A stretch of DNA of 46,716 nt, taken from NCBI GenBank assembly GCA_018580065.1, contig GCA_018580065.1_4845.1; one strand, written 5' to 3'. The position numbers were made by a program, and so were the translations under genes. Of this stretch, positions 5,456-37,291 are shown in pieces (position 1 is the stretch's first letter; each line of letters begins with the position of its first letter). This stretch comes from a phage. The notes beneath the pieces are model-generated. The model was given only the letters and a program-made list of their open reading frames with translations, was not told where the DNA came from and did no database searches.

Positions 5456-5484
5456 TTGACGTAGATTGATGGTGTGTTTATAGT
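5456..5484 (+). promoter_or_regulatory. sigma70-like promoter, TTGACG-17nt-TATAGT, with two copies of the GACGTAGA motif
   Basis: TTGACGTAGATT at 5456-5467, TATAGT 5479-5484, second motif copy GTGACGTAGAAA at 5487-5498. Confidence 0.6.
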
Positions 5485-5524
5485 TAGTGACGTAGAAACA
5501 ACAATAAATGTTAGAGGTGATGAA

Positions 5525-5785
5525 ATGTTTGATATTGATAACCCAAGTGATGACAAAGCCAAGCTGATTGATGCGGTCGCTTGCAGTTTCGCATCTTGCC
5601 AGACAGAAGGTGAATATCAGGTTGTGAAAATGTGCATTGTTGAGTTCTTCTCGGCAATCAACATTCCTGATGATGAGGCGGTTGATATTCTGCTGTGTGC
5701 CGCTGGGAGCTCCACTGAGGCGGACGAGTGCATTGATGAACTGGTTGAGGAGTTTGGCGGCATTTTCCAGGGTGATGAGGAGTAA
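5525..5785 (+). CDS. small highly acidic protein, candidate DNA-mimic anti-restriction protein
   Basis: 86 aa from ATG 5525 (RBS AGAGGTGA); very Asp/Glu-rich; first gene after an early-type promoter. Confidence 0.5.
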   Translation: MFDIDNPSDDKAKLIDAVACSFASCQTEGEYQVVKMCIVEFFSAINIPDDEAVDILLCAAGSSTEADECIDELVEEFGGIFQGDEE

Positions 5786-5787
5786 TC

Positions 5788-5979
5788 ATGGCAAACATGT
5801 ACTACTGTATGTTCCGCAATACCGTGATTGATTTTCGTGATTGCGTTGATGCAATTGGTAATGCTGAGTCTATTGACGAGTTCAGCAATTCAGAACACAA
5901 GTCTGCCGAGCGCCTGTACCATCTGGCTAATGAGTACGTCGCATATTACGAGCAATTGTTAGAAGAAAGTGGTGAATGA
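5788..5979 (+). CDS. hypothetical acidic protein
   Basis: ORF track 63 aa. Confidence 0.45.
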   Translation: MANMYYCMFRNTVIDFRDCVDAIGNAESIDEFSNSEHKSAERLYHLANEYVAYYEQLLEESGE

Positions 5980-5980
5980 T

Positions 5981-6790
5981 ATGAAAACACTAAGCAAAAT
6001 CTATTCAGACAAAGAAACACGCAACGGCATCGCTGTTAACAAAACCTATCTCGTGCCAGTGGAGCAAATCTATCTGGAGCCGGGATATAACATCCGTGAA
6101 GCAGATGAGCAGCATGTTGAATATTTTGCGCAGTGCTGGGAGTCCGGCCAGCCATTACCAGCATTAACAGTTATTCCAGACGAGAAGGGAATCCGCATTC
6201 TTGATGGTCAGCATCGCTATCTCGGCGCATTGCGTGCCATTGAGCGCGGAGCACCAATCGTTCGAATTGAGTGCAAGGATTTCACTGGCGACGAGGCGGA
6301 CAAAATCGCCTTCATGGTGTCATCAAGTCAGGGTAAGCAGCTTGACCCGTTTGAGCGCGCAAAGGCTTACACGCGACTGAAAGGCTTCGGCTGGACGAAT
6401 GAAGAAATCGCAAAAAAGGTAGGGCGCTCAGTATCTGACGTGCAAATGCATCTGTCTCTTGGTGATGTTCCGGCGGAAGTAAAAGCGCGAATCAGCGCCG
6501 GGCAAATCAGCTATGCAAATGCCGTAGCAGTAACTCGTGAGCATGGTGACGATGCGGTAAAGGTTATCGACGAGGCGGTCGAGGAAGCCAAAGCGCAAGG
6601 TAAGGATAAGGTCACTGCGAAGGTGCTGAAGTCGAAAAAGATTAAGCCAGTAGACCGTCTGATTGAGTTATTGAAGCCAGCAGACCACGTGATTCTTCCT
6701 GCTGGTCATGTGGTGGCAGAGGATGAGGAATTTATCCAGATTCCTGTTGCTGACATTCACGAGGTTATGGCAATTCTGGAGAAGATGTGA
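5981..6790 (+). CDS. ParB-like nuclease domain protein with C-terminal HTH
   Basis: ILDGQHRYLGALRA motif typical of ParB/Srx N-domain; RBS before ATG 5981. Confidence 0.65.
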   Translation: MKTLSKIYSDKETRNGIAVNKTYLVPVEQIYLEPGYNIREADEQHVEYFAQCWESGQPLPALTVIPDEKGIRILDGQHRYLGALRAIERGAPIVRIECKDFTGDEADKIAFMVSSSQGKQLDPFERAKAYTRLKGFGWTNEEIAKKVGRSVSDVQMHLSLGDVPAEVKARISAGQISYANAVAVTREHGDDAVKVIDEAVEEAKAQGKDKVTAKVLKSKKIKPVDRLIELLKPADHVILPAGHVVAEDEEFIQIPVADIHEVMAILEKM

Positions 6791-7281
6791 TGAACACAAC
6801 TAAAATAAATTGGGGTGATATTTTTCATTATGAAAATGGGGTGCTTAGGTGGAAGCACCAAAAAAGAAAAATGCTAAGTGGCTCTTTAGCTGGGACAATT
6901 GCAAATACAGGATATGTAATCATATGCGTTGATTACAAAAAATTCTTGGCTCACAGAATCATATGGGAGATGTTTAATGGACCAATCCCTGACGGGATGC
7001 AAATTGATCACATTAACCATATTCGTAATGATAACCGCATTGAAAACTTAAGGCTGGTAAGCCATATAGAGAACCATAGAAATCTTAGTAGGCAGAAAAA
7101 TAACAAATCAGGAAGAACTGGCGTTAGCTTTGACAGGAAGAGTGGGTTATGGAGGGCTTATGTATCAAAGATGCATATTGGTTTTTTTGCCAATAAAGAA
7201 GATGCAATATCCGCTAGAGAAAAAGCTGAAACTTCAACTGGGTATCACGAGAATCACGGAGTAAAAAGTGAACGTTTATGA
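6787..7281 (+). CDS. HNH homing endonuclease with AP2-like DNA-binding domain
   Basis: IDHINHIRNDNRIENLRLVSHIENHRN HNH motif; C-terminal GVSFDRKSGLWRAYV AP2-like segment. Confidence 0.8.
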   Translation: MMNTTKINWGDIFHYENGVLRWKHQKRKMLSGSLAGTIANTGYVIICVDYKKFLAHRIIWEMFNGPIPDGMQIDHINHIRNDNRIENLRLVSHIENHRNLSRQKNNKSGRTGVSFDRKSGLWRAYVSKMHIGFFANKEDAISAREKAETSTGYHENHGVKSERL

Positions 7282-7441
7282 TTTTCTCGTCAAGCAACTC
7301 CGCGCCAAGTTGCCTGACATTGACCAGATGGCAATTGATGCGGCGATTCAATATTACAAGCGCAATCAGAGCGCAAAGAAGGGTGGTATTTTTGAAGAAT
7401 GCCTGAAGGTTGCAAAACAGCACATGATTAAGGTGAAGTGA
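7268..7441 (+). CDS. hypothetical small protein (57 aa, GTG start)
   Basis: Fills gap between HNH and next gene; helical basic sequence; start uncertain. Confidence 0.25.
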   Translation: MNVYDFLVKQLRAKLPDIDQMAIDAAIQYYKRNQSAKKGGIFEECLKVAKQHMIKVK

Positions 7442-7977
7442 TGAAACTAAAAATCAGCAAATTATTACTTGAGTCAGCATTAATATTTCAGGCGCGAAAC
7501 GATGTTCGCTACTACCTGAATGGCATCTGCTTCATGCCTGATGGTCGTATTGTCTCAACTGACGGTCATCGCGCATTCATTGGTGGCAGCCATGACAACA
7601 AGCTGACAGAGAATGTGATTATCAAGATGGTAAAGTCGCCAACAAAGCGATATGAATACGCCATAATTGATACCAAGTCGAAAATTGCAACGTATCATGA
7701 TGAAGCTGGCGTGATGGTTGGTACTGGTATCTGCGAAGAGATTGATGGTCGATTCCCTGATATTGATCGCGTCATTCCTAAGCAGACCTTGCCAACAGAG
7801 GAAATTGGCTTCAATGCTGGTTACCTTGTGGATATCGAGAAAGTGGCGAAGCTGTTTAACCCTAAATTCTGTGGGGTTAAGTTTGAACTGAATGGAAACA
7901 CAAATGCCGCAGTTTGCTGTCTTATCGCGCCATCTGGCGAGGCGGCGAAGATTGTTGTTATGCCTATGCGTCTGTAG
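7438..7977 (+). CDS. DnaN (beta sliding clamp) domain-like protein
   Basis: VRYYLNGICF...STDGHRAF resembles the LNGV...ATDGHRLA clamp signature; single-domain size (179 aa). Confidence 0.4.
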   Translation: MMKLKISKLLLESALIFQARNDVRYYLNGICFMPDGRIVSTDGHRAFIGGSHDNKLTENVIIKMVKSPTKRYEYAIIDTKSKIATYHDEAGVMVGTGICEEIDGRFPDIDRVIPKQTLPTEEIGFNAGYLVDIEKVAKLFNPKFCGVKFELNGNTNAAVCCLIAPSGEAAKIVVMPMRL

Positions 7978-7982
7978 CAATA

Positions 7983-8010
7983 AAAAACCCGCATAATGCG
8001 GGTTTTGTTT
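7983..8010. terminator. bidirectional intrinsic terminator
   Basis: AACCCGC-ataat-GCGGGTT flanked by A-run and T-run. Confidence 0.7.
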
Positions 8011-8206
8011 ACTCTGCTTTCTTTTTCTTTGTCGTCTTTTGTTGTGGTGTTGCGACTTCGAAAGACTTTTCCAGTTCTGGCATGATGCGCAATTTTGGTA
8101 GCAGATGCTCGTCTGGTTCGGTAATCACTTCGCCAAGCTGCAACTCACGAATCTTGCCTTTCTCTTTAACAAAGATTCCGCGTGCGATGACTTCGTATTT
8201 GGCCAT
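8009..8206 (-). CDS. hypothetical protein
   Basis: ORF track 65 aa, lysine-rich C-terminus. Confidence 0.4.
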   Translation of the reverse strand: MAKYEVIARGIFVKEKGKIRELQLGEVITEPDEHLLPKLRIMPELEKSFEVATPQQKTTKKKKAE

Positions 8207-9321: not shown

Positions 9322-11200
<1,879 letters not shown>

Positions 11201-11537
11201 GGTTAACTCTCCACGGTTAGTTTGTGGTCGAATTATAACACAGGGAGATGTAGCACCATGAGGCGGTAGCCAGTGCAAATAATGGCGAATCGGTGAGTGC
11301 GTAGAGTGTGAGAAAGTAAGTGATAGGGATTATGTTCATGGGCTACCTCCTGATTAAATGATAGCAGCCCATGATGAATAAAAGATATACGGTGTTAGTC
11401 TGAAATTACATCATCCATGAATGCGAGAGCAGCACCTGTAAGACAAAACAGAGCGCCATAGCAAATCATCTGGTACAGAGTGTCAGCCTCAAATACCCTT
11501 GCGAATGCGTATGCTGATAATATCCACAGTAATGGAA

Positions 11538-16998: not shown

Positions 16999-17277
16999 AT
17001 GACAAAACGCGAATTACACCAATTATTTAACAAATGGCTTGATTCTGTTGGTTTTGGCGACATGAATGATAGAGAGAAGGACTTGCTTTGGTTTGGGTTT
17101 TCTGTTGGATATTGCCACGACAATAACAAGACCATGCTCGCAGCACTCCAGCAGCTTCTGGAAATCTACGACGACCATTCAGGAAAAGCCTGGACAACAT
17201 CAAGCAAGCGTCGTGCTCTGGATAATGCGCGCGATGCGGTTAATAAAGCGCTGGGGGAGCGCAATGAAACAATGTGA
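16999..17277 (+). CDS. hypothetical protein
   Basis: ORF track from GTG 16987; ATG at 16999. Confidence 0.45.
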   Translation: MTKRELHQLFNKWLDSVGFGDMNDREKDLLWFGFSVGYCHDNNKTMLAALQQLLEIYDDHSGKAWTTSSKRRALDNARDAVNKALGERNETM

Positions 17278-17749
17278 TCTTTTCCGTGTTCTTAGTTATA
17301 ACCCTGAATCTGGTGAATTCACGTGGATTAAATCAAGAAGACATGGGTTTAGCGGTCGAAAGGCTGGGTCGGTAAATGGGAAAGGGTACATACAGATCTG
17401 CATTGATGGAAAGCTTTATCTTGCGCACAGGCTTGCTCTTCTATACGTGACAGGAGAGATGCCAAAGGAGGTGGATCATATTAACAGGGTGAGAGATGAC
17501 AATAGATTATGCAACTTAAGGCCATGCACTTCATCTGAAAATAAGCACAACAAGGATATCACATCCAGAAACAAAACAGGGATGAAGGGCGTCAGCTGGT
17601 ATCCTGCCGGAAATTCATGGCGAGTAAGGATATGCGTAAATAAAACACAGATTCATCTGGGCTACTACGAAGACATTGAGCTGGCAGAGCTTGTGTCGCA
17701 AGAGGCGAGAATTAAATACGCAGGAGATTTTAATTATGAAGCTTATTGA
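17264..17749 (+). CDS. HNH homing endonuclease with AP2-like domain (second copy)
   Basis: VDHINRVRDDNRLCNLRPCTSSENKHN HNH motif; GVSWYPAGNSWRVRI AP2-like; paralogous to 6787..7281; ORF track begins upstream in-frame at 17066. Confidence 0.8.
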   Translation: MKQCDLFRVLSYNPESGEFTWIKSRRHGFSGRKAGSVNGKGYIQICIDGKLYLAHRLALLYVTGEMPKEVDHINRVRDDNRLCNLRPCTSSENKHNKDITSRNKTGMKGVSWYPAGNSWRVRICVNKTQIHLGYYEDIELAELVSQEARIKYAGDFNYEAY

Positions 17750-18504: not shown

Positions 18505-18533
18505 CAAGCCCTCACTTAGAGGGCTTTTTGTTA
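18505..18533. terminator. bidirectional intrinsic terminator
   Basis: AAGCCCTC-actta-GAGGGCTT with T-run. Confidence 0.7.
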
Positions 18534-19433
18534 TTGCTCTGGTTTTCCTCCGAGCTTTCTAATAATTTCTGCAGCAACGCACGGATCAACATTAAAAAAT
18601 TCAGTCGCCCCATCGAAACCTGACAACCCAGCATTTAAGTCCTTTAGCTTTCTATGCGCAGCGCCTTCCGCTTTCCTTGCTTTGTAATAGCTTTCGAATG
18701 AGAACTGACACAACAAAGATATAGAAAGACCTGATTTTTTAGTTAGTTGCTGAATCCTTAGAGGAACGTTATTTGATAACCCTATCTTTATCATTCCATT
18801 TGCTTCCAACAAATAAACCATAGTCTTTTTGAATGGGTTTCTTCCTGCGCATTTTGCACACCCGTGCCCCTTGGCGTGATGGCCAGCAAACTGGCGAAAA
18901 CTGCCATGAATAGGGCATATTATTTCAACCATGCTATTCATGCCACTAAAAACTACCTCATCATATGAATATTTCCCGCCATGGGCCTCTTTGCATCTTG
19001 CTATGAAGGATTCTGTATCCATGCCGCCCTTTCCACTGCAAACCCTGCACCCAATATTCCCTCTCAAGTGATCTCTTGCTATTTGCTGGAATTCACCATG
19101 TTTTTTGCACCTTATGGTTATCATTGACAGCATTCCAGAGTATTTGGTTGGTGAATAATCATAAATATCATGGTTTTTACTGGGAATCATATCCATAAAC
19201 TCATCATGACTGTACCCGTTATGCATTCCCCTGCCGGGCCTGCACTTTCTGCATCCGTTGCAACCGTTGAGGTGATCATTTGGCGTCTGTTTAAATAACA
19301 CATCATGCTTAATACATCTGATTATTACTGGCGATTTCCTTTTGATGTATTTAGTTTCTGAATAGTCAAATTTATCGCCGTGGATTAACTTAGCGCGTGA
19401 AATGAAATCTTCTGTGGTAGGTCTTTTTGCCAT
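18531..19433 (-). CDS. T5orf172-domain (GIY-YIG-related) protein with three N-terminal Cys-rich repeats; putative homing endonuclease
   Basis: C-terminal VYLLEANGMIKIGLSNN...GATEFFNV; three ~45-aa repeats each ending GCxxC; ATG 19433 (ORF track starts TTG 19517). Confidence 0.6.
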   Translation of the reverse strand: MAKRPTTEDFISRAKLIHGDKFDYSETKYIKRKSPVIIRCIKHDVLFKQTPNDHLNGCNGCRKCRPGRGMHNGYSHDEFMDMIPSKNHDIYDYSPTKYSGMLSMITIRCKKHGEFQQIARDHLRGNIGCRVCSGKGGMDTESFIARCKEAHGGKYSYDEVVFSGMNSMVEIICPIHGSFRQFAGHHAKGHGCAKCAGRNPFKKTMVYLLEANGMIKIGLSNNVPLRIQQLTKKSGLSISLLCQFSFESYYKARKAEGAAHRKLKDLNAGLSGFDGATEFFNVDPCVAAEIIRKLGGKPEQ

Positions 19434-19528
19434 TATTAACCCCGTAGCAGGTTCGTAGATTGAGGATTGCAGCAGGGTGTCTACGTTCACCTTTTCGTCT
19501 GGCCGGACTAGCTGCAATTGAGATTATA

Positions 19529-20485
19529 TCACTTTGCCTTGTGAGCTGAAAGCCACTTATCTCTCGCTGATATCATCCTGTCAAGAGAAGATTCAAGCAT
19601 GATCACATTACCATTTTCATCTAATAGGCATGGCGTTTGACCACAATGGCACCGAAATCTATTTCCGTCCTTGCTGTAAAACTCCTCCACCTGTTCTGGC
19701 GAGTACGCCTTAGAGTGTCTGATGGCGTGAGTTTGTCTGGTTGTTGGTAATAGCGCCGACACCCAAAATAGGGCACTATTTAGCCCCAAAATAATCTTTG
19801 ATTCCTGAACTTCGTCAGACTGCGACTTGCGTAAAATGCCCGTAAGCTCGGTTTGGGCAATGTTTTTTGCTCGCGATTCACTTACACCAACGCGCTTAAT
19901 GATGTCTGATTCAATATCTCTCGGATTAGAACCAACAGCGATAGCATTCATGATCACCTGAGACAAATCATTACGTGCCGCGTCTCCAATTCCAACCCAA
20001 TCGCTGTAAGTGGAGGCATTGGCAATAGACAGGCGCTGCAAATATGGCTCAGAGTAAATAATGTCTGCAATTGAACGGCGCTCAGCATAGAGTGGAGACA
20101 TGGCTGCCAGTTGCTGTTGCGCCTCAACCGTACCAGCTGAATAGGCGTCAGAGACATAAATTGACATCCAGAACTGACCAGCATCCATTGGCTGAGTATC
20201 ATCAAGCAGTATTTCATCAATTAGCTGTTGCAGCGCCTCATTAAATTGAGCTGCCCTAGCGGCTGAAAAATCATACCTGTAACCATAGGCATCAATGGAG
20301 TTAATTGCGGCAACTGGAATTGACCTGAATAAGTCTATGACTGACGATTTAAGGCGCTTGTATCGCGCCTCAATCTGTTTGTTTGCCTTGCTTAGTCTCC
20401 TGTTAGCGCCAACAGGGTCTGTTTTGCTGGTTGGTATCTTCGGGCCAACCAGTCTGGCGCTAACCTTAAAGATTTTGATTTTCAT
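19529..20485 (-). CDS. head morphogenesis protein (SPP1 gp7 / Mu F-like, by position)
   Basis: Immediately downstream of portal gene; ATG 20485 overlaps portal stop (ORF track from 20557). Confidence 0.55.
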
Positions 20486-21869
20486 CGTCAGGATTACCCT
20501 CTGTGACGATCTGAATTTCTTCAATCGGCTCCATGCCAACCATGCCGCGAGCCTCATCGACAGTTAACAGCGCAGACTGACCAGCATCAAAGAATGACTT
20601 GTTCGCAGTGGCCAGTTTGGCTAGCAACTCCGCTTTATCCAGTTCCGATGGTGCCAGCAGGTCATCCCACTTAACTTTGTAGCCATTTTCTGGTGCTTTA
20701 TCGACAATGCCGAACTGAATCATGCGCTCAACAAACATTGAAATGACATAATCAACCCATGTTTCGCGGCGTTGTTTGGCGGTCATCGCCTCCTGCATCT
20801 TGTCTTCATCGCTTGCAAGGCGCCCTGTCTGCTGCCCGAAAATGACGGTGAACGGAAGCGCCATAGATGCAGCGAACTGGTTGGCAGCAACTTCCCATGT
20901 TGGTTTCGGATCGGCTGGCGCCACAGCGAGAACCTTTGCGTCAGCGCCCATTGTGAACATGGCGGCGTCGATGCCTGAGTTCAGCGCCTCAATGTTCTCA
21001 TTCATGATGTCGGTGAGTTCTTCGATGTCGACACCCATCGACTGAGCGAGACTTGCTGGTGTTACATTATCCTCCGTATAGTTAACAGCCAGTTGGCGGC
21101 TTGCATTCTTCAGGAATCCTTCTGCGGAGCTACCGGAAACCTTAGCCATGTCGATAAGGCTGTTGTAGCCAGCACGCAACATCGGGACGCCACTGAACAT
21201 GCTGCCGTCAAAGCTCCCCTCCGCCAGAATAATGATGCGGTCAGGGTGAATCTGCACGGAACGCTCAGGCTTGCCGTCGCTGTCGAAGTCTTCCACGGCG
21301 CTTTCCTGATATTCGTACATCTCAGGCATTCCGTAGTCTTCGCTGGTTTCGTCGTTATTCCACGCACTGACTTTGAGCTGCTCCTCCCATACCGGAATAA
21401 AGCGGACGATGGATTTATCTTTAATGCGGCGTGTTTTTGTGATGTCTACCGGTTCACTCCATTGCTTACCATCGCGGATTTGCAGGATGACGGCGGAATA
21501 GCGGTTGATGGCGTTGCGCTTGTCGGCCTCCTTGATGAACGGATAGGCACGCTTCATCATGCCGTTGATGGACAGTTCCCACGACGTAGAGTTCTTGTCA
21601 TCCTCGCCATCTTCGACCACCTCTGGGTACTTCTGCCAGCATTTATTAATAATGCGGTTAATGCCAGCTGCGGCGGCAGGATGTCGCTCGTAGGCGTAGC
21701 GGAACATCTCAGCGGTGATTTCCTGCGGGTAGCCGCATTCCGTCCAGAGTCTGTCGTGCTTCTGGTCAAGATTCTTCCCACCAGCACAAAGCCGTTGCTG
21801 CTGAATAGCCCGGTTATTGTTCGCCACGCGGTCGCGTATGTAGGCGTTTAAAGCATCAATTTTGGACAT
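20466..21869 (-). CDS. portal protein
   Basis: 467 aa, acidic C-terminus, followed by head morphogenesis gene. Confidence 0.75.
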
Positions 21870-28820: not shown

Positions 28821-29243
28821 ATGAAAAGGTACTACATTGAGGCAATTGGGGCTGATGGTAAAAAGTTATATGCCAGCGGTAGATGTGGTTTTCTGCATGA
28901 TTTTACCTATGCGAAGTTTTTCAAAACAATAGAGGAGGCTGAGGGGTATATGGCGTGGCGGAAGCCTCATCTCCCATGTGAAATAAAATGCAAGGAGCAA
29001 AGGGTAAAAAAACGGTCTGCGTCTCAGGTGGAACAAAAAACGACAATGGAGGGAGAAGCTAGAAACTTCGTCTACCGCCTTGGTTTGGATAAGGGAAAGC
29101 ATTTTGTGTTTGATGATTTTAAGTTGATAAAGAGCATTGATCAGTTGAGAACTTCCCTTGACAGGGTGGGTAAGAAGCTGCAAAAAAAATTCAGTGTCAA
29201 TATGGTTGCGCGTAATACCGCTTATGTGGTGAGGGTTAAATGA
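28821..29243 (+). CDS. hypothetical protein
   Basis: ATG 28821 with GTGAGGTG RBS (ORF track from 28806). Confidence 0.45.
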   Translation: MKRYYIEAIGADGKKLYASGRCGFLHDFTYAKFFKTIEEAEGYMAWRKPHLPCEIKCKEQRVKKRSASQVEQKTTMEGEARNFVYRLGLDKGKHFVFDDFKLIKSIDQLRTSLDRVGKKLQKKFSVNMVARNTAYVVRVK

Positions 29244-31573
29244 TGATTGGTTATGAAGATTACCGCAAATGTGGCTTCCCTATTATTGGAATCCATGCGA
29301 TGGATATCGACCGAAATTGCACATGCGGTGATCCAGAGTGCAATGCTGCCGGTAAGCATCCGGTTATGAGCAACTGGCAGCTTGGAGTTATATGGGCTGA
29401 TGACCAGATTGAAAATATGGCTGAATATGGTCAGTTGCAGTCATTCGGTGTCCTTGTGAATGGTTATCTGGTCGTTGATATTGACCCACGCAACGGAGGT
29501 AATGATGGATATGAATCGCTTTGTGATGCCTTAGACGTAGAGCTTGCTGACGAAGCTGGTTTTACGGTCAAGACTGGTGGTGGTGGTCGCCACATCTATT
29601 ACAAACTTCCTGAAGGAATAAAGCTGCGCTCTCATGACAGAAGATTTAATGGTATTGACTTTAAATCATCTGGTTTTGTTGTTGGATGTGGTTCTTTTCA
29701 TAAAACTGGAAACTTTTATGAGGCCGAGCATGGATCCCCTTCAGAGATAACTGAATGTCCATCTGAACTTATTGAGCTTTTGTTGCGTCCTGAGAGAACG
29801 GAAGACGAGGTTTTCACGCTTGATAGTAAAAATTACAGCATTGCCGAAATGGAGGATATGCTCAAATACATCAAAGATGGTGATGAGTATGACCCATGGC
29901 TTCATGTAGGTATGGCTATCCACGAAGCTACAGAAGGCAATGGTTTTGAGCTTTGGGATAGATGGTCATCGCAGTTCAGCAAATACAGAGCTGAAGAGAT
30001 GGACGCAAAATGGCATTCCTTTGGAAAGGACGGCGTTAGCGAAAAGATAACAGAAGCAACGCTGGTTTATCTCGCGCAAGAGGGGGGGTGGGTAAGGCAA
30101 GTAACTTTTGAGGCTACGCCAGAGGAAATTGAGAAACTTGAGTCTTTCGAACGAGAGATGGCAATGGGTGTTGGTGAATGCCCTGTAGAGTACAAAAGTG
30201 TTGATGTCCGTTATCCGCCTGGATTTGTTGGTCGCCTTGCGGCGTGGATTAATAAGAACTGTGCAGAGAAGCGAGAGAATATTGCAGCACTTGCCGCATT
30301 GCATGCCGCATCCATGATTTGCGGTGCGTCATCTGATATTTACCTTACAAACAGGAAGGCTTTACCAAACCTTTTTGCTGTTGGTATCGCTGGTTCAGGT
30401 TCAGGTAAGGGTGATGTCCTTGCTGCGCTACAAAAGATAATTGATTGCTCAGGATTGAGTAAGACAGTTGCCGGTAAGATACGCTCAGAGCGTGCGATAT
30501 ATGAAGGTCTTTGCGCTAACCAGATGTTTAATATCATCATGGATGAGATTGGGATAAAACTTGGGAGTGTTGTTGGTCAGAAAGTAAGCGAGTACAACAT
30601 GGCAACCGCTGGTGCGATCATGGAGGCTTACACGTCAGAAGTTCTTTATTGTGACCAGCGGGTTACTGAGGATTTCATTAAGTCTTTTGAAAAAAGAAAG
30701 GCTATGCTGTTGATGGCTATTGAGGAAAATGAAATACAGGCAGACCCCGTTGACATTAAGTGTCAGTTTGATGATGTGATAAACAGAATTGACGGAGCTA
30801 TAAGGAATCCATTTTTTTCAATCTTTGGTGTATCTACTGATGATCAGTTTAAGCGCCTTATTACAGAAGAAAACATTAAGTCAGGCCTTATGGGTCGCGC
30901 AATGATTATGCAGGAGTTACAGGAGATTGCTGATGAAAACGAAAACGTAAACTACTGTGATCTACCTATGGATATGCAACTGACCATAAAAACAATAATA
31001 AATGGCGGAACGGCTGGGCACAAAAACTGGACAGACTCAATAATCAGTCAAAAAGAAAGACGGATTATAAAAGCCACGCCTGAAGTTTCTCAGCTCGCCA
31101 AGGAGTTCTTCTCATGGATTAAAACCGTTGCAAGAAAGCATGTAGAAAATGGTACTGGTTATCACCCATTGATAAACAGATGCGCCGTGAAGGTGGCAAA
31201 GATTGCTGGAATTCTCGCGTGCGATACTGGCGTCATAACCATGGAGCACTTGAGATATGCGGTAGCATTAACAATTAAATCAACAAGCGATCTGATGATG
31301 CGTGCCGACAGTATCGCCGGAGCGAAGTCTAAAGCTATGGAAGAGAGAATTGAAGGCATTTTCTCCATGGTTAAAGAATATGTGAAGCGAGGAATGACCA
31401 AAACAGCAATGGTTAGAGGGGTGGCAAAAGAAGGTGGTTATAAACGTGCTGATGTCGAGAGGTGCGTAGAGAAGTTGTTATCAGATGGTGTTATTTGCAT
31501 TGATGAAAATGCAAAAAGAACATCTCACAACGTAATAATTTACAAATTAACAAATGATGAGGTTGAGATATGA
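29240..31573 (+). CDS. bifunctional DNA primase-polymerase with helicase-like C-terminal domain
   Basis: Prim-pol motifs VVDIDPRNGG and GGGRHIYY, PriCT-like DPWLHVGMAIHEA, Walker A GIAGSGSGKG. Confidence 0.8.
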   Translation: MMIGYEDYRKCGFPIIGIHAMDIDRNCTCGDPECNAAGKHPVMSNWQLGVIWADDQIENMAEYGQLQSFGVLVNGYLVVDIDPRNGGNDGYESLCDALDVELADEAGFTVKTGGGGRHIYYKLPEGIKLRSHDRRFNGIDFKSSGFVVGCGSFHKTGNFYEAEHGSPSEITECPSELIELLLRPERTEDEVFTLDSKNYSIAEMEDMLKYIKDGDEYDPWLHVGMAIHEATEGNGFELWDRWSSQFSKYRAEEMDAKWHSFGKDGVSEKITEATLVYLAQEGGWVRQVTFEATPEEIEKLESFEREMAMGVGECPVEYKSVDVRYPPGFVGRLAAWINKNCAEKRENIAALAALHAASMICGASSDIYLTNRKALPNLFAVGIAGSGSGKGDVLAALQKIIDCSGLSKTVAGKIRSERAIYEGLCANQMFNIIMDEIGIKLGSVVGQKVSEYNMATAGAIMEAYTSEVLYCDQRVTEDFIKSFEKRKAMLLMAIEENEIQADPVDIKCQFDDVINRIDGAIRNPFFSIFGVSTDDQFKRLITEENIKSGLMGRAMIMQELQEIADENENVNYCDLPMDMQLTIKTIINGGTAGHKNWTDSIISQKERRIIKATPEVSQLAKEFFSWIKTVARKHVENGTGYHPLINRCAVKVAKIAGILACDTGVITMEHLRYAVALTIKSTSDLMMRADSIAGAKSKAMEERIEGIFSMVKEYVKRGMTKTAMVRGVAKEGGYKRADVERCVEKLLSDGVICIDENAKRTSHNVIIYKLTNDEVEI

Positions 31574-33164: not shown

Positions 33165-34007
33165 ATGAGCTTATCAATGATTCAAAAACCAAAACCAGCA
33201 GCGCCAATCATAACATTGGTTGGTACTCCAGGTGTAGGCAAGACAACTCTTGCGGCGCTATTCCCAAACCCAGTGTTTATTCAGGCTGAAGAGATCACTG
33301 GTGTTTTTGATGACTGGGATGATGAAAAGAAACCTGATTCATTTCCTGTTCTGAAGCGCGCTGACGTTAAACGCAAAACAAGCACAAAGGATGATTTGCT
33401 GTCACAGCTACGCGCATTAATTACTGAGGAACATAATTACAAAACGCTTGTAATTGACTCAATCACAAGCCTGCATTCAATGTTTGAGCATGAGGTTTGT
33501 GAAAATTACGGTGTTGACAACGTAGGTTCTGCGGCTGGTGGTTACAACAAAGGATATATTGTTGTTTCTGAAATGCACGCTGAAATAATAAATGCATGTA
33601 AGTATCTTCGCAAAGAAAAAGGGATGAGCATTATTTATCTTGCACACGCAGGTGTTAAAAAGATGAAGAATCGCCCTGATGCTGATGAATACACTGTTTA
33701 CACACTTGACATGCATGACGCTTCAGTTTCTGGTTATGTGAATCTGAGTGATGCTGTTATTTACATCAGGAATGAGGAGTTCGTGAAAGGAACTGAGACT
33801 GATAAGAAAGGTCAGGTGACCAAGTTTGGAAAGGTTGTTCAGACTGGTCAGCGAGTTCTTATCACCTCTGGTGATGGTCGGGTTGGGTATGTTAATGCAA
33901 AAAACAGATATAACCTTGAACCTGAAATTCCTTTTGAAAAAGGTGAGAATCCACTTTTGAGTGAGATTAAATATTATGCATCTCTACGAGATAACCAAAC
34001 AGCTTAA
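33165..34007 (+). CDS. Sak4-like RecA-fold recombination ATPase
   Basis: Walker A LVGTPGVGKTT near N-terminus; size and neighbourhood match phage Sak4-type proteins. Confidence 0.65.
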   Translation: MSLSMIQKPKPAAPIITLVGTPGVGKTTLAALFPNPVFIQAEEITGVFDDWDDEKKPDSFPVLKRADVKRKTSTKDDLLSQLRALITEEHNYKTLVIDSITSLHSMFEHEVCENYGVDNVGSAAGGYNKGYIVVSEMHAEIINACKYLRKEKGMSIIYLAHAGVKKMKNRPDADEYTVYTLDMHDASVSGYVNLSDAVIYIRNEEFVKGTETDKKGQVTKFGKVVQTGQRVLITSGDGRVGYVNAKNRYNLEPEIPFEKGENPLLSEIKYYASLRDNQTA

Positions 34008-34455
34008 TGAACTGCTGGCGATGGAGGATATTCCACGGGAGCAGATTGAAGATACCATAAATCTTATTGAAGAGGAGTTTGAAGGAAAGGCTGAAATGGT
34101 TGCTGCTTACATTCGTGAGCTTGAAGCTGATGATGCCGGACTTAAGTCCGAGATTGACCGTCTTTCTGAGCGTAAGCGTGTTTTAGTTGCGAAGATTGAT
34201 AACCTTAAAGATTATCTTCGTCAAAACATGATGGCGTCAGGAAAGACAGATATCAAAGGTAAGTTGTTCAGTATCACTCTTGGCAAACCGTCACCAGTTC
34301 TTGATGTGTTTGTCCCTGTTGAGCAGCTTCCTGAGCAGTACCGGGTTGTGAAAGTGTCGGCAGATAACGCAGCAATTAAAAATGCGATAAAAGCCGGGAT
34401 TGAAATTAATGGTTGTGCCATCACCGACGGCAAACCAAAACTGATCATCAAATAA
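33976..34455 (+). CDS. Gp157-like protein (tentative)
   Basis: Coiled-coil N-terminus; adjacent to Sak4-like gene; ATG 33976 (ORF track from GTG 33961). Confidence 0.4.
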   Translation: MHLYEITKQLNELLAMEDIPREQIEDTINLIEEEFEGKAEMVAAYIRELEADDAGLKSEIDRLSERKRVLVAKIDNLKDYLRQNMMASGKTDIKGKLFSITLGKPSPVLDVFVPVEQLPEQYRVVKVSADNAAIKNAIKAGIEINGCAITDGKPKLIIK

Positions 34456-34472
34456 ATCGAGAGGACACAAAA

Positions 34473-34994
34473 ATGGGTTTCTGGAATCTTTCTGACGGTA
34501 AAGCTGTTGAGTCTAAATCTGAATTTGAACTGGGTGGTGGTTTCGAAGTAATTCCTGATGGCAGCCGTGTTCTTGCTGCCGTTGAAGAATGTAAAGACGA
34601 TCAGTGGGAAGGTGAGCGATTCTTCAATCTTAAGTGGCGAATCCTTGAGGGTGATTATAAAAATCGCATCATCTTCCAGAAGCTGAAAGTATTTAGCTCA
34701 AAAGAAAAGCAGCGCGACAATGCTATCACTATGCTTGCAGCAATTGACGCAAACGCCGGTGGCAAGCTGATGGCTTCAGGTAAAGAGCCGACTGATTTTG
34801 CTATTGCTAGTGCGCTTGCAAATCGCCCAATGATTCTTCTTCTTCGCGTTTGGGAGTCTGAGGATAAGCAAAAAACTGGTAACTATGTGGCTGGTGTTTT
34901 CAGTCGTCAACAGACAAAAGCATCACCTACTACTAAGCAATCAGCGCCGTCTAACGAGCCGCCGATGGACTTTGACTCTGACGTGCCGTTTTAA
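34473..34994 (+). CDS. putative ssDNA-binding protein with E. coli SSB-like C-terminal tip
   Basis: C-terminus SAPSNEPPMDFDSDVPF nearly identical to E. coli SSB tip PSNEPPMDFDDDIPF; N-terminal domain does not look like a canonical OB-fold SSB. Confidence 0.55.
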   Translation: MGFWNLSDGKAVESKSEFELGGGFEVIPDGSRVLAAVEECKDDQWEGERFFNLKWRILEGDYKNRIIFQKLKVFSSKEKQRDNAITMLAAIDANAGGKLMASGKEPTDFAIASALANRPMILLLRVWESEDKQKTGNYVAGVFSRQQTKASPTTKQSAPSNEPPMDFDSDVPF

Positions 34995-35015
34995 TGACTT
35001 GATATTTATTTAAAT

Positions 35016-35040
35016 AAAGCCCCTTAACGGGGCTTTTAAT
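35016..35040 (+). terminator. intrinsic terminator
   Basis: AAGCCCC-ttaa-CGGGGCTT followed by TTAATT. Confidence 0.6.
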
Positions 35041-35051
35041 TGGTGGTTTAT

Positions 35052-35426
35052 ATGTACGAAGTTATCTGTGATTACTGCAATATTGCGACAAGACTAGCCA
35101 AAGGGAGTGAAATTTACCCACACAGACCAGACCTTTCGTCTCTTAATTTTTATCTGTGTGATTCTTGTGGTGCTTATGTTGGTTGCCATAAAAATGGTGA
35201 TGGTAAAAGGCCACTTGGGCGTGTGGCTAATGAAGAATTAAGGAAGGCAAAAAGCAAAGCCCATGCTGCATTTGATCCATTATGGAAATCAGGAAAAATG
35301 TCAAGAGGCTCTGCTTATTCTGCATTAGCTAGTTCGATGGGAATAAGAAAAGAGAAGTGTCACATAGGAATGTTTGATGTTAAGCAGTGCGAGCATGTTG
35401 TCGAGTGGTGCAAGGAGTTTGACTGA
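35052..35426 (+). CDS. zinc-ribbon protein
   Basis: CDYC...CDSCGAY...C cysteine pairs; ATG 35052 (ORF track from TTG 35040). Confidence 0.45.
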   Translation: MYEVICDYCNIATRLAKGSEIYPHRPDLSSLNFYLCDSCGAYVGCHKNGDGKRPLGRVANEELRKAKSKAHAAFDPLWKSGKMSRGSAYSALASSMGIRKEKCHIGMFDVKQCEHVVEWCKEFD

Positions 35427-37291
35427 TGAAATACACACTAAGGCCATACCAACAGGAAGCTGTTGATTCAGCTATGGCACACATTCGCAGCACAATCTCA
35501 TCATGCGTTATCATCCTGCCTACAGGTGCAGGAAAATCTATGGTTGTAGCAGAACTTGCATCTCGTATTTATGGTATGAGCAAAAAGCGAGTTTTGTGCA
35601 TTGCTCCCACGGCGGAACTCGTCACACAAAATCGCGCTAAATATCTTCTCACCGGAGAACCAGCCAGCATGTTCAGTGCAAAGGCTGGCCCCAAAAACCT
35701 GCGTCATCCGGTGGTGTTTGGTTCACCAGTTACAATCAAGAACTCAATAGAGATGTTTGGTGATAAGTATGGTGCTGTCATTATTGATGAGTGCGATGGA
35801 ATAACACCAACCATTAAATTTATTATTAATGAAATGAAGCGTCGCAATCCAAAACTGCGTGTTATTGGAATGACCGCTACGCCTTATCGCCTTGGAACTG
35901 GATACATCTACAAAGAGCATTACCTCGACGGTCCTACAGATGAAGAAACAGCCATAGACCCATATTACGACAAAGTCGTTTATGAGCTTGAGGCGAAATT
36001 CCTCATTGAAAACGGATACCTTACGCCTCCAGTAACAGAGCCTGTTTTTGACGAGTATGATACGTCTTGTCTTGAAAAAGATAAGTTGGGTCGGTACACG
36101 ACGGCTTCAGTGGAAAAGGCGATGGTTGGCAAAGGAAGGAAAACATCACGTATTGTTGAAGATATTATCCGTCGCTCTGTTAATCGGCGCGGAACGATGA
36201 TTTTTGCCAGCACCAAAAAACACGCTATGGAGATAATGGAGTCACTTCCTCCCGGTTCTTATAGTTATGTTTTTGGTGACATGCCGACAGCTGAACGCAA
36301 TAAGGCAATATCAGACTTCAAGGCGCAAAAAGTTAAATACATCGTTAACCAAAATATACTTACTGTAGGGGTTGATGTTCCTCATTGTGATCACATAGCA
36401 GTAATGAGAGCCACAGAATCACCAAGGCTCTATCAGCAAATAATTGGCAGGGGGACGCGTCTTTATGAAGGAAAGGAAGACTTTCTTGTCAGCGATTACG
36501 CAGGCAACATTCAGCGCCACTTTTCTGAGACTGGGGACTTGTTCACTCCAGAAATAAAAGCAACAAGGAAAAAACCATCCGTGCCAATGGATGTCAAATG
36601 CCCTCTTTGTGGCTTTATTAATGAATTTGGTGTGCGCCCAAATCCTGAAAATCTTGAAGTTGACAAGGAAGGTTACTGGCTGGATTTGGCGGGTGACAGA
36701 GTAATGATTGATATTTTTGATAAGTCAGGTGAAAAGATTGGAAGCAAGCCTATGCCTGCTCATTTTGGTAGGCGGTGTAAAAACTACGTTATGCATGGAC
36801 CACTAAGGGAAATGCATAGGTGTACTTATAAATGGTCGGTAAAGGAGTGTCCTGATTGTGGGTTTGAAAATGATATAGCGGCAAGAAACTGCACATCATG
36901 CGGAGCTGAAATCATTGACCCCAACCAAAAGCTAAAAGAAGAAGCTGACAGGCTTGATTCCTCTCCTTATGCAACCAAGCAATCAAACGTAACCATGATG
37001 AACATCATGAAGCATTACGTTTCAAGCGGTGAAGATTTGGTACACGTAAAATTTGCTATTGAACATAAACCATTTTTTGTTAGTAAGTTCTACAATCCAA
37101 ACTCTGAGAAGGGATGGATGAAGAAGGAGTGGGAAGAATTTTGTGAGAAGTGCTTTGGTGAACATAACATGTCAATTGATGATGCAATAGCAAAAAGAGA
37201 TGAGGCTGTCGCGCCATCAGTGATTATGTTCAGAAGAGACAAGGGTAGTAAATATTTCAACGTTAAAGGCATGTATTGGGGGGTATTATGA
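35426..37291 (+). CDS. SF2 DNA helicase with C-terminal zinc fingers
   Basis: Walker A ILPTGAGKS, Walker B VIIDECDG, helicase C-domain motifs, CPLCGF and CPDCGF...CTSCGA zinc ribbons. Confidence 0.8.
   Translation: MKYTLRPYQQEAVDSAMAHIRSTISSCVIILPTGAGKSMVVAELASRIYGMSKKRVLCIAPTAELVTQNRAKYLLTGEPASMFSAKAGPKNLRHPVVFGSPVTIKNSIEMFGDKYGAVIIDECDGITPTIKFIINEMKRRNPKLRVIGMTATPYRLGTGYIYKEHYLDGPTDEETAIDPYYDKVVYELEAKFLIENGYLTPPVTEPVFDEYDTSCLEKDKLGRYTTASVEKAMVGKGRKTSRIVEDIIRRSVNRRGTMIFASTKKHAMEIMESLPPGSYSYVFGDMPTAERNKAISDFKAQKVKYIVNQNILTVGVDVPHCDHIAVMRATESPRLYQQIIGRGTRLYEGKEDFLVSDYAGNIQRHFSETGDLFTPEIKATRKKPSVPMDVKCPLCGFINEFGVRPNPENLEVDKEGYWLDLAGDRVMIDIFDKSGEKIGSKPMPAHFGRRCKNYVMHGPLREMHRCTYKWSVKECPDCGFENDIAARNCTSCGAEIIDPNQKLKEEADRLDSSPYATKQSNVTMMNIMKHYVSSGEDLVHVKFAIEHKPFFVSKFYNPNSEKGWMKKEWEEFCEKCFGEHNMSIDDAIAKRDEAVAPSVIMFRRDKGSKYFNVKGMYWGVL

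Follow-up and report, generated by a model that had tools for sequence, protein, structure and literature searches.

A short clamp-like protein encoded in the phage DNA of NCBI GenBank assembly GCA_018580065.1 (contig GCA_018580065.1_4845.1) was analyzed, and it was found to be a homologue of the beta sliding clamp and yet not DnaN. This protein, referred to as the mini-clamp, is a 1.5-domain and very probably ring-incompetent derivative of a proteobacterial beta clamp. Moreover, it is probably a non-ring module of the pocket in which the beta clamp receives the clamp-binding motif (CBM) of its partners. The whole stretch of 46,716 nucleotides, called the window below, is an almost complete genome of a Skatevirus-like siphophage, and the mini-clamp region shows 93% DNA identity to Salmonella phage BS5.

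An initial annotation of the window had noticed a clamp signature segment in an open reading frame (ORF) at 7438..7977 (+). The segment was present as claimed, as the ORF is translated into a protein of 179 amino acids (aa) containing NDVRYYLNGICF...STDGHRAF. Translation probably starts at ATG 7441, giving 178 aa, since a Shine-Dalgarno sequence is found at 7430-7436 and most close homologues have 178 aa. This ATG shares one base with the stop codon TGA (7439-7441) of an upstream 57-aa ORF (TGATG), and the overlap suggests translational coupling with the upstream ORF. The features of the gene are listed below, with pocket residues numbered as in E. coli DnaN.

7430..7436 (+), Shine-Dalgarno sequence AAGGTGA, 4 nt 5' of ATG 7441, identified by sequence reading
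7441..7977 (+), mini beta-clamp coding sequence, stop codon included; probably 178 aa from ATG 7441 (179 aa from GTG 7438)
7441..7776 (+), aa 1-112, equivalent of domain II (E. coli DnaN ~129-250)
7501..7524 (+), aa 21-28, DVRYYLNG, corresponding to DnaN D150-G157; holds pocket residues R152 and L155 and is part of the 148-152 loop
7558..7572 (+), aa 40-44, TDGHR, corresponding to DnaN T172-R176; subsite I and the H175 bridge
7744..7779 (+), aa 102-113, DGRFPDIDRVIP, corresponding to DnaN D238-P249; holds pocket residues P242, R246 and V247
7777..7974 (+), aa 113-178, single beta-alpha-beta-beta-beta unit equivalent to the second half of domain III (DnaN 313-366)

Clamp homology and domain composition

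The homology to beta sliding clamps proposed in the initial annotation was borne out by phmmer, family-profile and fold matches. Among PDB sequences, enterobacterial beta clamps were matched by phmmer at E=1.9e-13 to 7e-12, and a profile built from 131 diverse family members matched beta clamps exclusively (E=1.5e-30). In the case of the curated models, Pfam DNA_pol3_beta_2 gave E=0.009 (16.7 bits, below the cut-off of 27) and TIGR00663, the DnaN equivalog, gave E=5.6e-8 (32.1 bits against a cut-off of 137.65 bits), and no match was obtained with the Pfam models of the DnaN N-terminal and C-terminal domains. The AlphaFold2 monomer model, which was computed on the family alignment, had a mean predicted local distance difference test score (pLDDT) of 97.3 and a predicted template modeling score (pTM) of 0.91. 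The model showed the clamp fold of repeated beta-alpha-beta-beta-beta units, and its top PDB matches in Foldseek were E. coli DnaN structures. Moreover, BFVD contains many viral models of 178-250 aa with the same clamp fold, and models of 178-196 aa matched the mini-clamp at template modeling (TM) scores of 0.82-0.88. The DnaN profile search and structure prediction that had been suggested as checks thus clearly gave neither a lack of profile matches nor an unrelated fold.

The shortness of the protein noted in the initial annotation was also confirmed, as 178 aa compared with 366 is far too short for DnaN. The three clamp domains that make up the ~366-aa chain of DnaN are not all present. When aligned to E. 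coli K-12 DnaN, the mini-clamp corresponds to residues 136-250 (domain II) joined directly to residues 316-366, with no counterpart for DnaN 1-135 (domain I) and 251-315 (the first half of domain III). As a family profile, the third unit, comprising the last 66 residues, matched the second half of domain III better (31.2 bits) than the first half (7.4 bits). This unit includes EIGFNAGY (N320, Y323), and the C-terminus VVMPMRL (V360-L366) is the same as the end of DnaN. Roughly one clamp domain had been expected from the length of the protein; the alignment and the half-domain scores did not support a single domain and gave 1.5 domains, namely domain II followed by the C-terminal half of domain III.

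Within the third unit, the stretch NPKFCGVKF (aa 141-149, window 7861-7887) resembles NEKFRGVRL at DnaN 278-286, which belongs to the first half of domain III. The local alignment score of this stretch was 34 against the first half and 16 against the second half, and the corresponding family-profile scores were 4.4 and 0.6 bits; both ends of the unit match the second half. The resemblance could be due to chance between pseudo-repeats or could be a recombination trace between the two halves of domain III. An origin of the third unit from the first half, to which this weak likeness would point, was rejected on the scores of the whole unit.

The loss of these segments bears on ring formation. The dimer interface of the clamp is formed by I78 and F106 of domain I and by I272 and L273 of domain III (PMC11139829), and all four residues fall in DnaN segments that are absent from the mini-clamp. 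The model contains two long helices (aa 7-16 and 126-139) for three units, and a Pro-containing loop (aa 64-72) takes the place of the second channel-lining helix of domain II; in DnaN, each half-domain provides a channel helix. A closed ring is unlikely because the dimer-interface segments and a channel helix are missing and the number of units is odd.

Conservation of the partner-binding pocket

The CBM pocket of the beta clamp consists of subsite I (R152, L155, T172, G174, H175, R176, L177, P242, R246, V247, V360 and M362) and subsite II (H175, N320, Y323, V344, M362, P363, M364 and R365) (PMC11139829). The deleted DnaN segments contain none of these 18 pocket residues. Identity to E. coli DnaN was found at 16 of the 18 pocket positions, compared with 42 of the 143 other aligned positions (Fisher p=1.4e-6). 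In the alignment of the 131 family members, which are 27-50% identical to the window protein, pocket residues accounted for 11 of the 16 most conserved columns (hypergeometric p=1e-9), including G174, P242, R152, M362, L155, T172, H175, Y323, P363 and R365. These alignments show that selection in the truncated family maintains chiefly the CBM pocket.

The initial annotation had also considered that the protein could mimic or sequester the host clamp. In the case of sequestration, any target is more likely to be the clamp partners than the clamp, because the partner pocket was kept and both dimer-interface segments are gone.

Charge of the mini-clamp and search for its ligands

The isoelectric point (pI) of the mini-clamp is 8.2, compared with 5.25 for DnaN; the family median is also 8.2, and 64% of the members have values >7.5. 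Outside the pocket, conserved K/R residues were found at aa 19, 134, 137 and 142, in the equivalent of the H148 loop and in the retained domain III helix, both of which are DNA-facing elements in the clamp ring. The basic pI and the conserved K/R residues suggest that the mini-clamp may bind DNA.

A pattern scan with penta- and hexameric motifs gave no convincing CBM in the proteins of the 88 window ORFs, including PrimPol, and the same scan gave none in the family-A polymerases of three relatives. The matches were degenerate and internal, and one of them, QMHLSL, was located inside the helix-turn-helix (HTH) domain of the ParB-like protein. Since no canonical CBM was found in the phage proteins or the polymerases of the relatives, and since the pocket is near-identical to the host pocket in an otherwise ~30%-identical family that has no constant phage partner, host proteins are the likelier ligands of the pocket.

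Family size and previous annotations

The extent of the family was determined by an exhaustive HMMER search over 1.84 billion representatives, which gave 2145 clusters (50% identity) at E<=1e-3 and 199 at E<=1e-10. Lengths were 170-215 aa in most of the best 150 clusters, and an MPxR C-terminus was common. The mini-clamp belongs to this family by its full-length match to the family profile, its 1.5-domain length and its MPxR end. The gene itself is already known, as it has been annotated as 'DNA polymerase III beta subunit', 'beta clamp domain protein' or 'fragment' since at least the record of Burkholderia phage Bcep781. No functional or structural study of the family was found in the searched literature, the solved structures matching the family profile were full clamps only, and PADLOC gave no match for defence-related homology. 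The pocket-only, ring-less reading and its consequences appear to be undescribed so far.

The mini-clamp is matched by phrog_3007 over residues 2-179 (E=5.9e-63). The label of this group, 'RusA-like Holliday junction resolvase', has been copied into many RefSeq annotations (NC_054646, NC_054650, NC_054645 and others); GenBank submitters name the gene DNA polymerase III (Pol III) beta or beta clamp. The family label is what speaks for a RusA-like resolvase. All sequence, profile and fold matches were to sliding clamps, no match to RusA or another resolvase was obtained in Pfam even at E up to 10, and Bcep781 encodes a separate Rus gene (gp22) alongside its mini-clamp (gp15). This identity was rejected, and the chance that it is correct is practically nil.

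Gene context and dispensability in relatives

The gene context of the mini-clamp was compared across eight lineages, and no phage-encoded neighbour was constant among them. Contexts in relatives are listed below.

Serratia phage Eta: between a ParB-like gene and a helicase gene, opposite the primase gene
Acinetobacter phage 4316: directly 3' of a family-A polymerase gene and 5' of VRR-NUC and helicase genes
Enterobacter phage ST22: after helicase and nuclease genes
Pseudomonas phage Riah: near the gene of a ParB-N protein
Dhillonvirus TheodorHerzl, 20001-20519: alone, on the opposite strand, inside the head module
Burkholderia phage Bcep781, 10433-11014: gp15, 'DNA Pol III b subunit fragment', likewise isolated within the head module and on the opposite strand

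In Bcep781 and in TheodorHerzl, a siphovirus, the mini-clamp gene diverges from the run of genes leading to the major capsid gene, with ~145 bp of intergenic DNA. The mini-clamp gene of the window also abuts the capsid operon, but in a convergent orientation. A family-A polymerase is encoded at another place in the genomes of both TheodorHerzl and Bcep781. The idea that only polymerase-less phages carry a mini-clamp was rejected because TheodorHerzl, Bcep781 and Acinetobacter phage 4316 have a family-A polymerase.

The dispensability of the gene could be evaluated from Skatevirus seszw, the genome of which was reduced by CRISPR-based iterative deletion (PMC9825161). The mini-clamp of this phage is seszw_16; in tblastn, the window protein and the seszw locus share 92.7% identity. 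The mutant records are MZ375295-MZ375333 and OL9647xx. The 3.3-kb seszw region surrounding the mini-clamp gene was matched at >=99% identity by 72 records, and the gene itself was matched by only 47. Deletion of seszw_16 together with seszw_17 was confirmed in clones 150S, 170L and 180L; the smallest sequenced clone, 160L, retains seszw_16. Plaques thus form on the laboratory host without the mini-clamp, and large-plaque clones are among those lacking it; an essential replication gene was accordingly rejected on the basis of these deposited mutants. The neighbouring gene, seszw_17, occupies the position of window 7268-7441. Many of the reduced genomes lack this gene alone and others lack it along with the mini-clamp, and both genes are individually dispensable.

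Operon and replication genes of the window

In the window, the mini-clamp is the last gene of a plus-strand operon that faces a convergent capsid operon on the minus strand. The surrounding features and the replication module are as follows.

5456..5484 (+), sigma-70-like promoter candidate TTGACG-17-TATAGT at the operon head, a consensus match only (10/12)
5474..7441 (+), upstream genes of the mini-clamp transcription unit, five ORFs
5474-5785 (+), anti-restriction-like acidic protein, first gene of the operon (phrog_14587 'anti-restriction protein', E=2e-43)
5788-5979 (+), small ORF of the same operon
5969-6790 (+), ParB-like HTH protein of the same operon
6787-7281 (+), HNH endonuclease (HNH_3), between the ParB-like gene and the 57-aa ORF
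7268-7441 (+), 57-aa phrog_4439 protein, immediately 5' of the mini-clamp
7984..8006 (no strand assigned), bidirectional intrinsic-terminator-like hairpin between the mini-clamp operon (+) and the capsid operon (-)
29240-31573 and 33165-37291 (+), replication module, including the 777-aa PrimPol fusion and the helicase

The anti-restriction-like gene at its head suggests that the operon is an early host-takeover transcription unit. In most close relatives, the aligned part of the 5900-8100 query amounts to just 77% and is split into two to four pieces, and the feature lists of these relatives show no HNH gene at the 6787-7281 position or a methylase there. Considering this partial coverage and these feature lists, the operon region around the HNH gene is variable. 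At least two further HNH/homing-endonuclease genes are present in the window (17066-17749 and 18531-19517).

The window encodes no DNA polymerase, in agreement with the initial annotation, in which no recognizable replicative DNA polymerase had been found. The replication genes encode a 777-aa PrimPol-PriCT_2-DUF3987 fusion, a ResIII/Helicase_C helicase, an AAA_24 ATPase, a DUF669 protein and a DUF3268 zinc-finger protein, and the remaining large ORFs are structural or endonucleases. Phage BS5 is annotated instead with primases, a helicase, Erf, exonuclease VIII and a single-stranded DNA-binding protein (SSB), and replication or recombination modules may differ within the genus. In the capsid region, the ORF at 9788-11278 (-), upstream of the decoration and major capsid genes, encodes a 496-aa protein (phrog_760, E=4e-145) in a scaffold- or protease-like position; this ORF has a TTG start, and its 5' end is possibly over-extended.

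Proposed role and alternative explanations

As a tentative proposal, the mini-clamp may act as a DNA-associated, loader-independent docking site comparable to UL42 of herpesvirus. The mini-clamp would bind the CBM peptides of host clamp partners off the ring, and no clamp loader would be needed. Candidate partners are Pol III alpha/epsilon, clamp-loader delta, Hda, Pol I/II/IV/V, MutS/L and ligase. The protein would sit directly on phage DNA via the basic residues of the former DNA-facing elements, and the docking site would bring host partners, foremost the Pol III core, to phage replication intermediates as a non-essential accessory factor. This docking site is preferred because it explains the basic shift and the replication-module context, and the location of the gene next to helicase, primase, PolA, VRR-NUC or ParB-like genes in relatives and the lack of a DNA polymerase in the window were counted in its favour. 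A broader form of the proposal is more doubtful, namely that a loader-free, ring-free clamp surrogate, derived from a trimmed host DnaN, is widespread in tailed phages of Proteobacteria, sits on phage DNA via a basic face and redirects the host Pol III core and other CBM proteins to phage replication or recombination intermediates.

Several observations weigh against the docking site. Recruitment of Pol III cannot be a family-wide role, given the relatives with their own family-A polymerase. The mini-clamp is missing from ~25 of ~70 seszw-derived genomes, including the large-plaque clones 170L and 180L, and such dispensability fits poorly with the recruitment of a core replicative polymerase. 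A basic pI is an indirect sign of DNA binding. In the case of the pocket, two positions differ from DnaN (L177A and V344T), and the enrichment of pocket residues among the conserved columns is partly inherited, since the same residues rank among the most conserved ones of DnaN in general and contributed to the recruitment of family members.

The pocket evidence is shared with a second explanation, according to which the mini-clamp is a soluble decoy that competes with the host clamp for CBM proteins independently of DNA. Such a decoy could titrate delta, Hda, Pol III, Pol IV/II or MutS/L and thereby halt replication and repair in the host, or could clear accessory factors from clamps to keep phage DNA replication from being slowed. 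It would be in line with the early-type operon headed by an anti-restriction-like host-takeover gene, with dispensability in the laboratory, which is often seen for host-takeover genes, and with the occurrence of family members in phages encoding a polymerase themselves, where a block of the host replisome makes sense. Moreover, monomeric beta binds delta ~50-fold tighter than the dimer (PMC11139829), and the clamp network is manipulated by MuC, PreS and Twort Gp168 of other phages. However, the polymerase-less phage of the window would itself suffer from a general inhibitor of Pol III or the loader, so that only a selective sink would be workable, and a decoy leaves the basic pI shift, the conserved basic former channel face and the frequent location of the gene inside replication modules unexplained or unaccounted for. 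The decoy was considered less likely than the docking site.

The neighbouring PolA, helicase, nuclease and ParB-like genes in relatives, together with the precedent of herpesvirus UL42 with UL30, would also suit an accessory subunit, the pocket of which binds a non-canonical motif on the PrimPol-helicase, an SNF2-type helicase, a family-A polymerase or a ParB-like protein as a private processivity or tethering factor. This possibility is rather improbable, as the CBM scans of the window proteins and of the three PolAs gave nothing convincing, the neighbours vary by lineage, and the gene stands alone in the head module of the Dhillonvirus and Bcep781. Moreover, a pocket for a phage-specific peptide could drift, yet it is near-identical to the host pocket. 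The role as a PrimPol accessory considered in the initial annotation may apply but received no support: some phages of the family differ in their replication module or encode a family-A polymerase themselves, and no CBM was found in PrimPol or another phage protein. A genuine sliding clamp has the least to recommend it among these functional explanations and is very improbable. Four 1.5-domain copies would supply the twelve units of a clamp ring (4 x 3), or a mixed assembly with host DnaN could be formed, and the ring would serve host Pol III or a phage polymerase; the clamp-like fold and pocket and the name Pol III beta subunit given by many annotators agree with this. Against it, neither side of the natural dimer interface remains, and with an odd number of units in each chain, intra- and inter-domain contacts can no longer alternate. 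Moreover, a loop stands in place of one of the three channel helices expected, the match to the DnaN equivalog (32 bits) is far below the cut-off of that model, and the monomer was predicted with very high confidence without a partner.

Comparison with known systems and meaning

Compared with DnaN of the E. coli type (PDB 1MMI, 2POL and 3D1F), the mini-clamp is about half as long, is basic instead of acidic, lacks domain I, the first half of domain III and one channel helix, and scores far below curated thresholds. A truncated clamp is also known from E. coli: beta*, reportedly described by Skaliter, Paz-Elizur and Livneh in 1996, is said to be a UV-inducible 26-kDa product from inside dnaN that retains domains II and III in full, with a trimeric ring as its proposed form. 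Similar to the mini-clamp, beta* is N-terminally truncated, lacks domain I and keeps the pocket-bearing C-terminal part. Unlike beta*, the mini-clamp has also lost half of domain III and one helix, and it represents a separately evolving phage family. The herpesvirus non-ring processivity factors UL42 of herpes simplex virus 1 (HSV-1), UL44 of cytomegalovirus (CMV), PF-8 and BMRF1 have no detectable sequence relationship to the mini-clamp. Factors of the UL42 and UL44 type have a clamp fold without ring closure, bind DNA directly via a basic surface and hold a polymerase peptide at the inter-domain site. They consist of two full domains and work with a dedicated viral polymerase, whereas the mini-clamp has a host-like pocket and occurs here in a phage without a polymerase.

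Phage-borne proteins with the clamp fold include full-length phage DnaN (345-395 aa in the same fold search) and T4 gp45. Both are complete ring-forming clamps, and the mini-clamp lacks their length and interfaces. T4 gp45 is served by a clamp loader of T4, and the host loader could serve full-length phage DnaN. N4 gp8 binds delta. Other phage factors act on the host clamp network, namely Twort Gp168 (PDB 7evp), MuC of phage Mu, for which over-initiation was reported (PMC12867686), and the lambda small RNA (sRNA) PreS, which acts on dnaN (bioRxiv 10.1101/2024.10.31.621285). Like the mini-clamp, these four factors are tied to the host clamp hub, that is, the clamp, its pocket or its loader. They are ligands, regulators or inhibitors of the clamp, whereas the mini-clamp is a copy of the receptor site of the clamp.

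The findings correct the misleading RefSeq label 'RusA-like Holliday junction resolvase'. The pocket of the beta clamp is a hub for polymerases, repair enzymes and replication regulators and is an antibiotic target; the mini-clamp would offer a minimal pocket module of natural origin, probably a monomer, with which CBM binding could be assayed and inhibitors screened. A large phage family that kept the pocket and discarded the ring implies an undescribed route of host takeover or polymerase recruitment. If the docking site is true, the mini-clamp would be a bacterial-virus counterpart of herpesvirus UL42, and it would help to explain how small siphophages that are polymerase-less or have a non-DnaB helicase use host replication enzymes.
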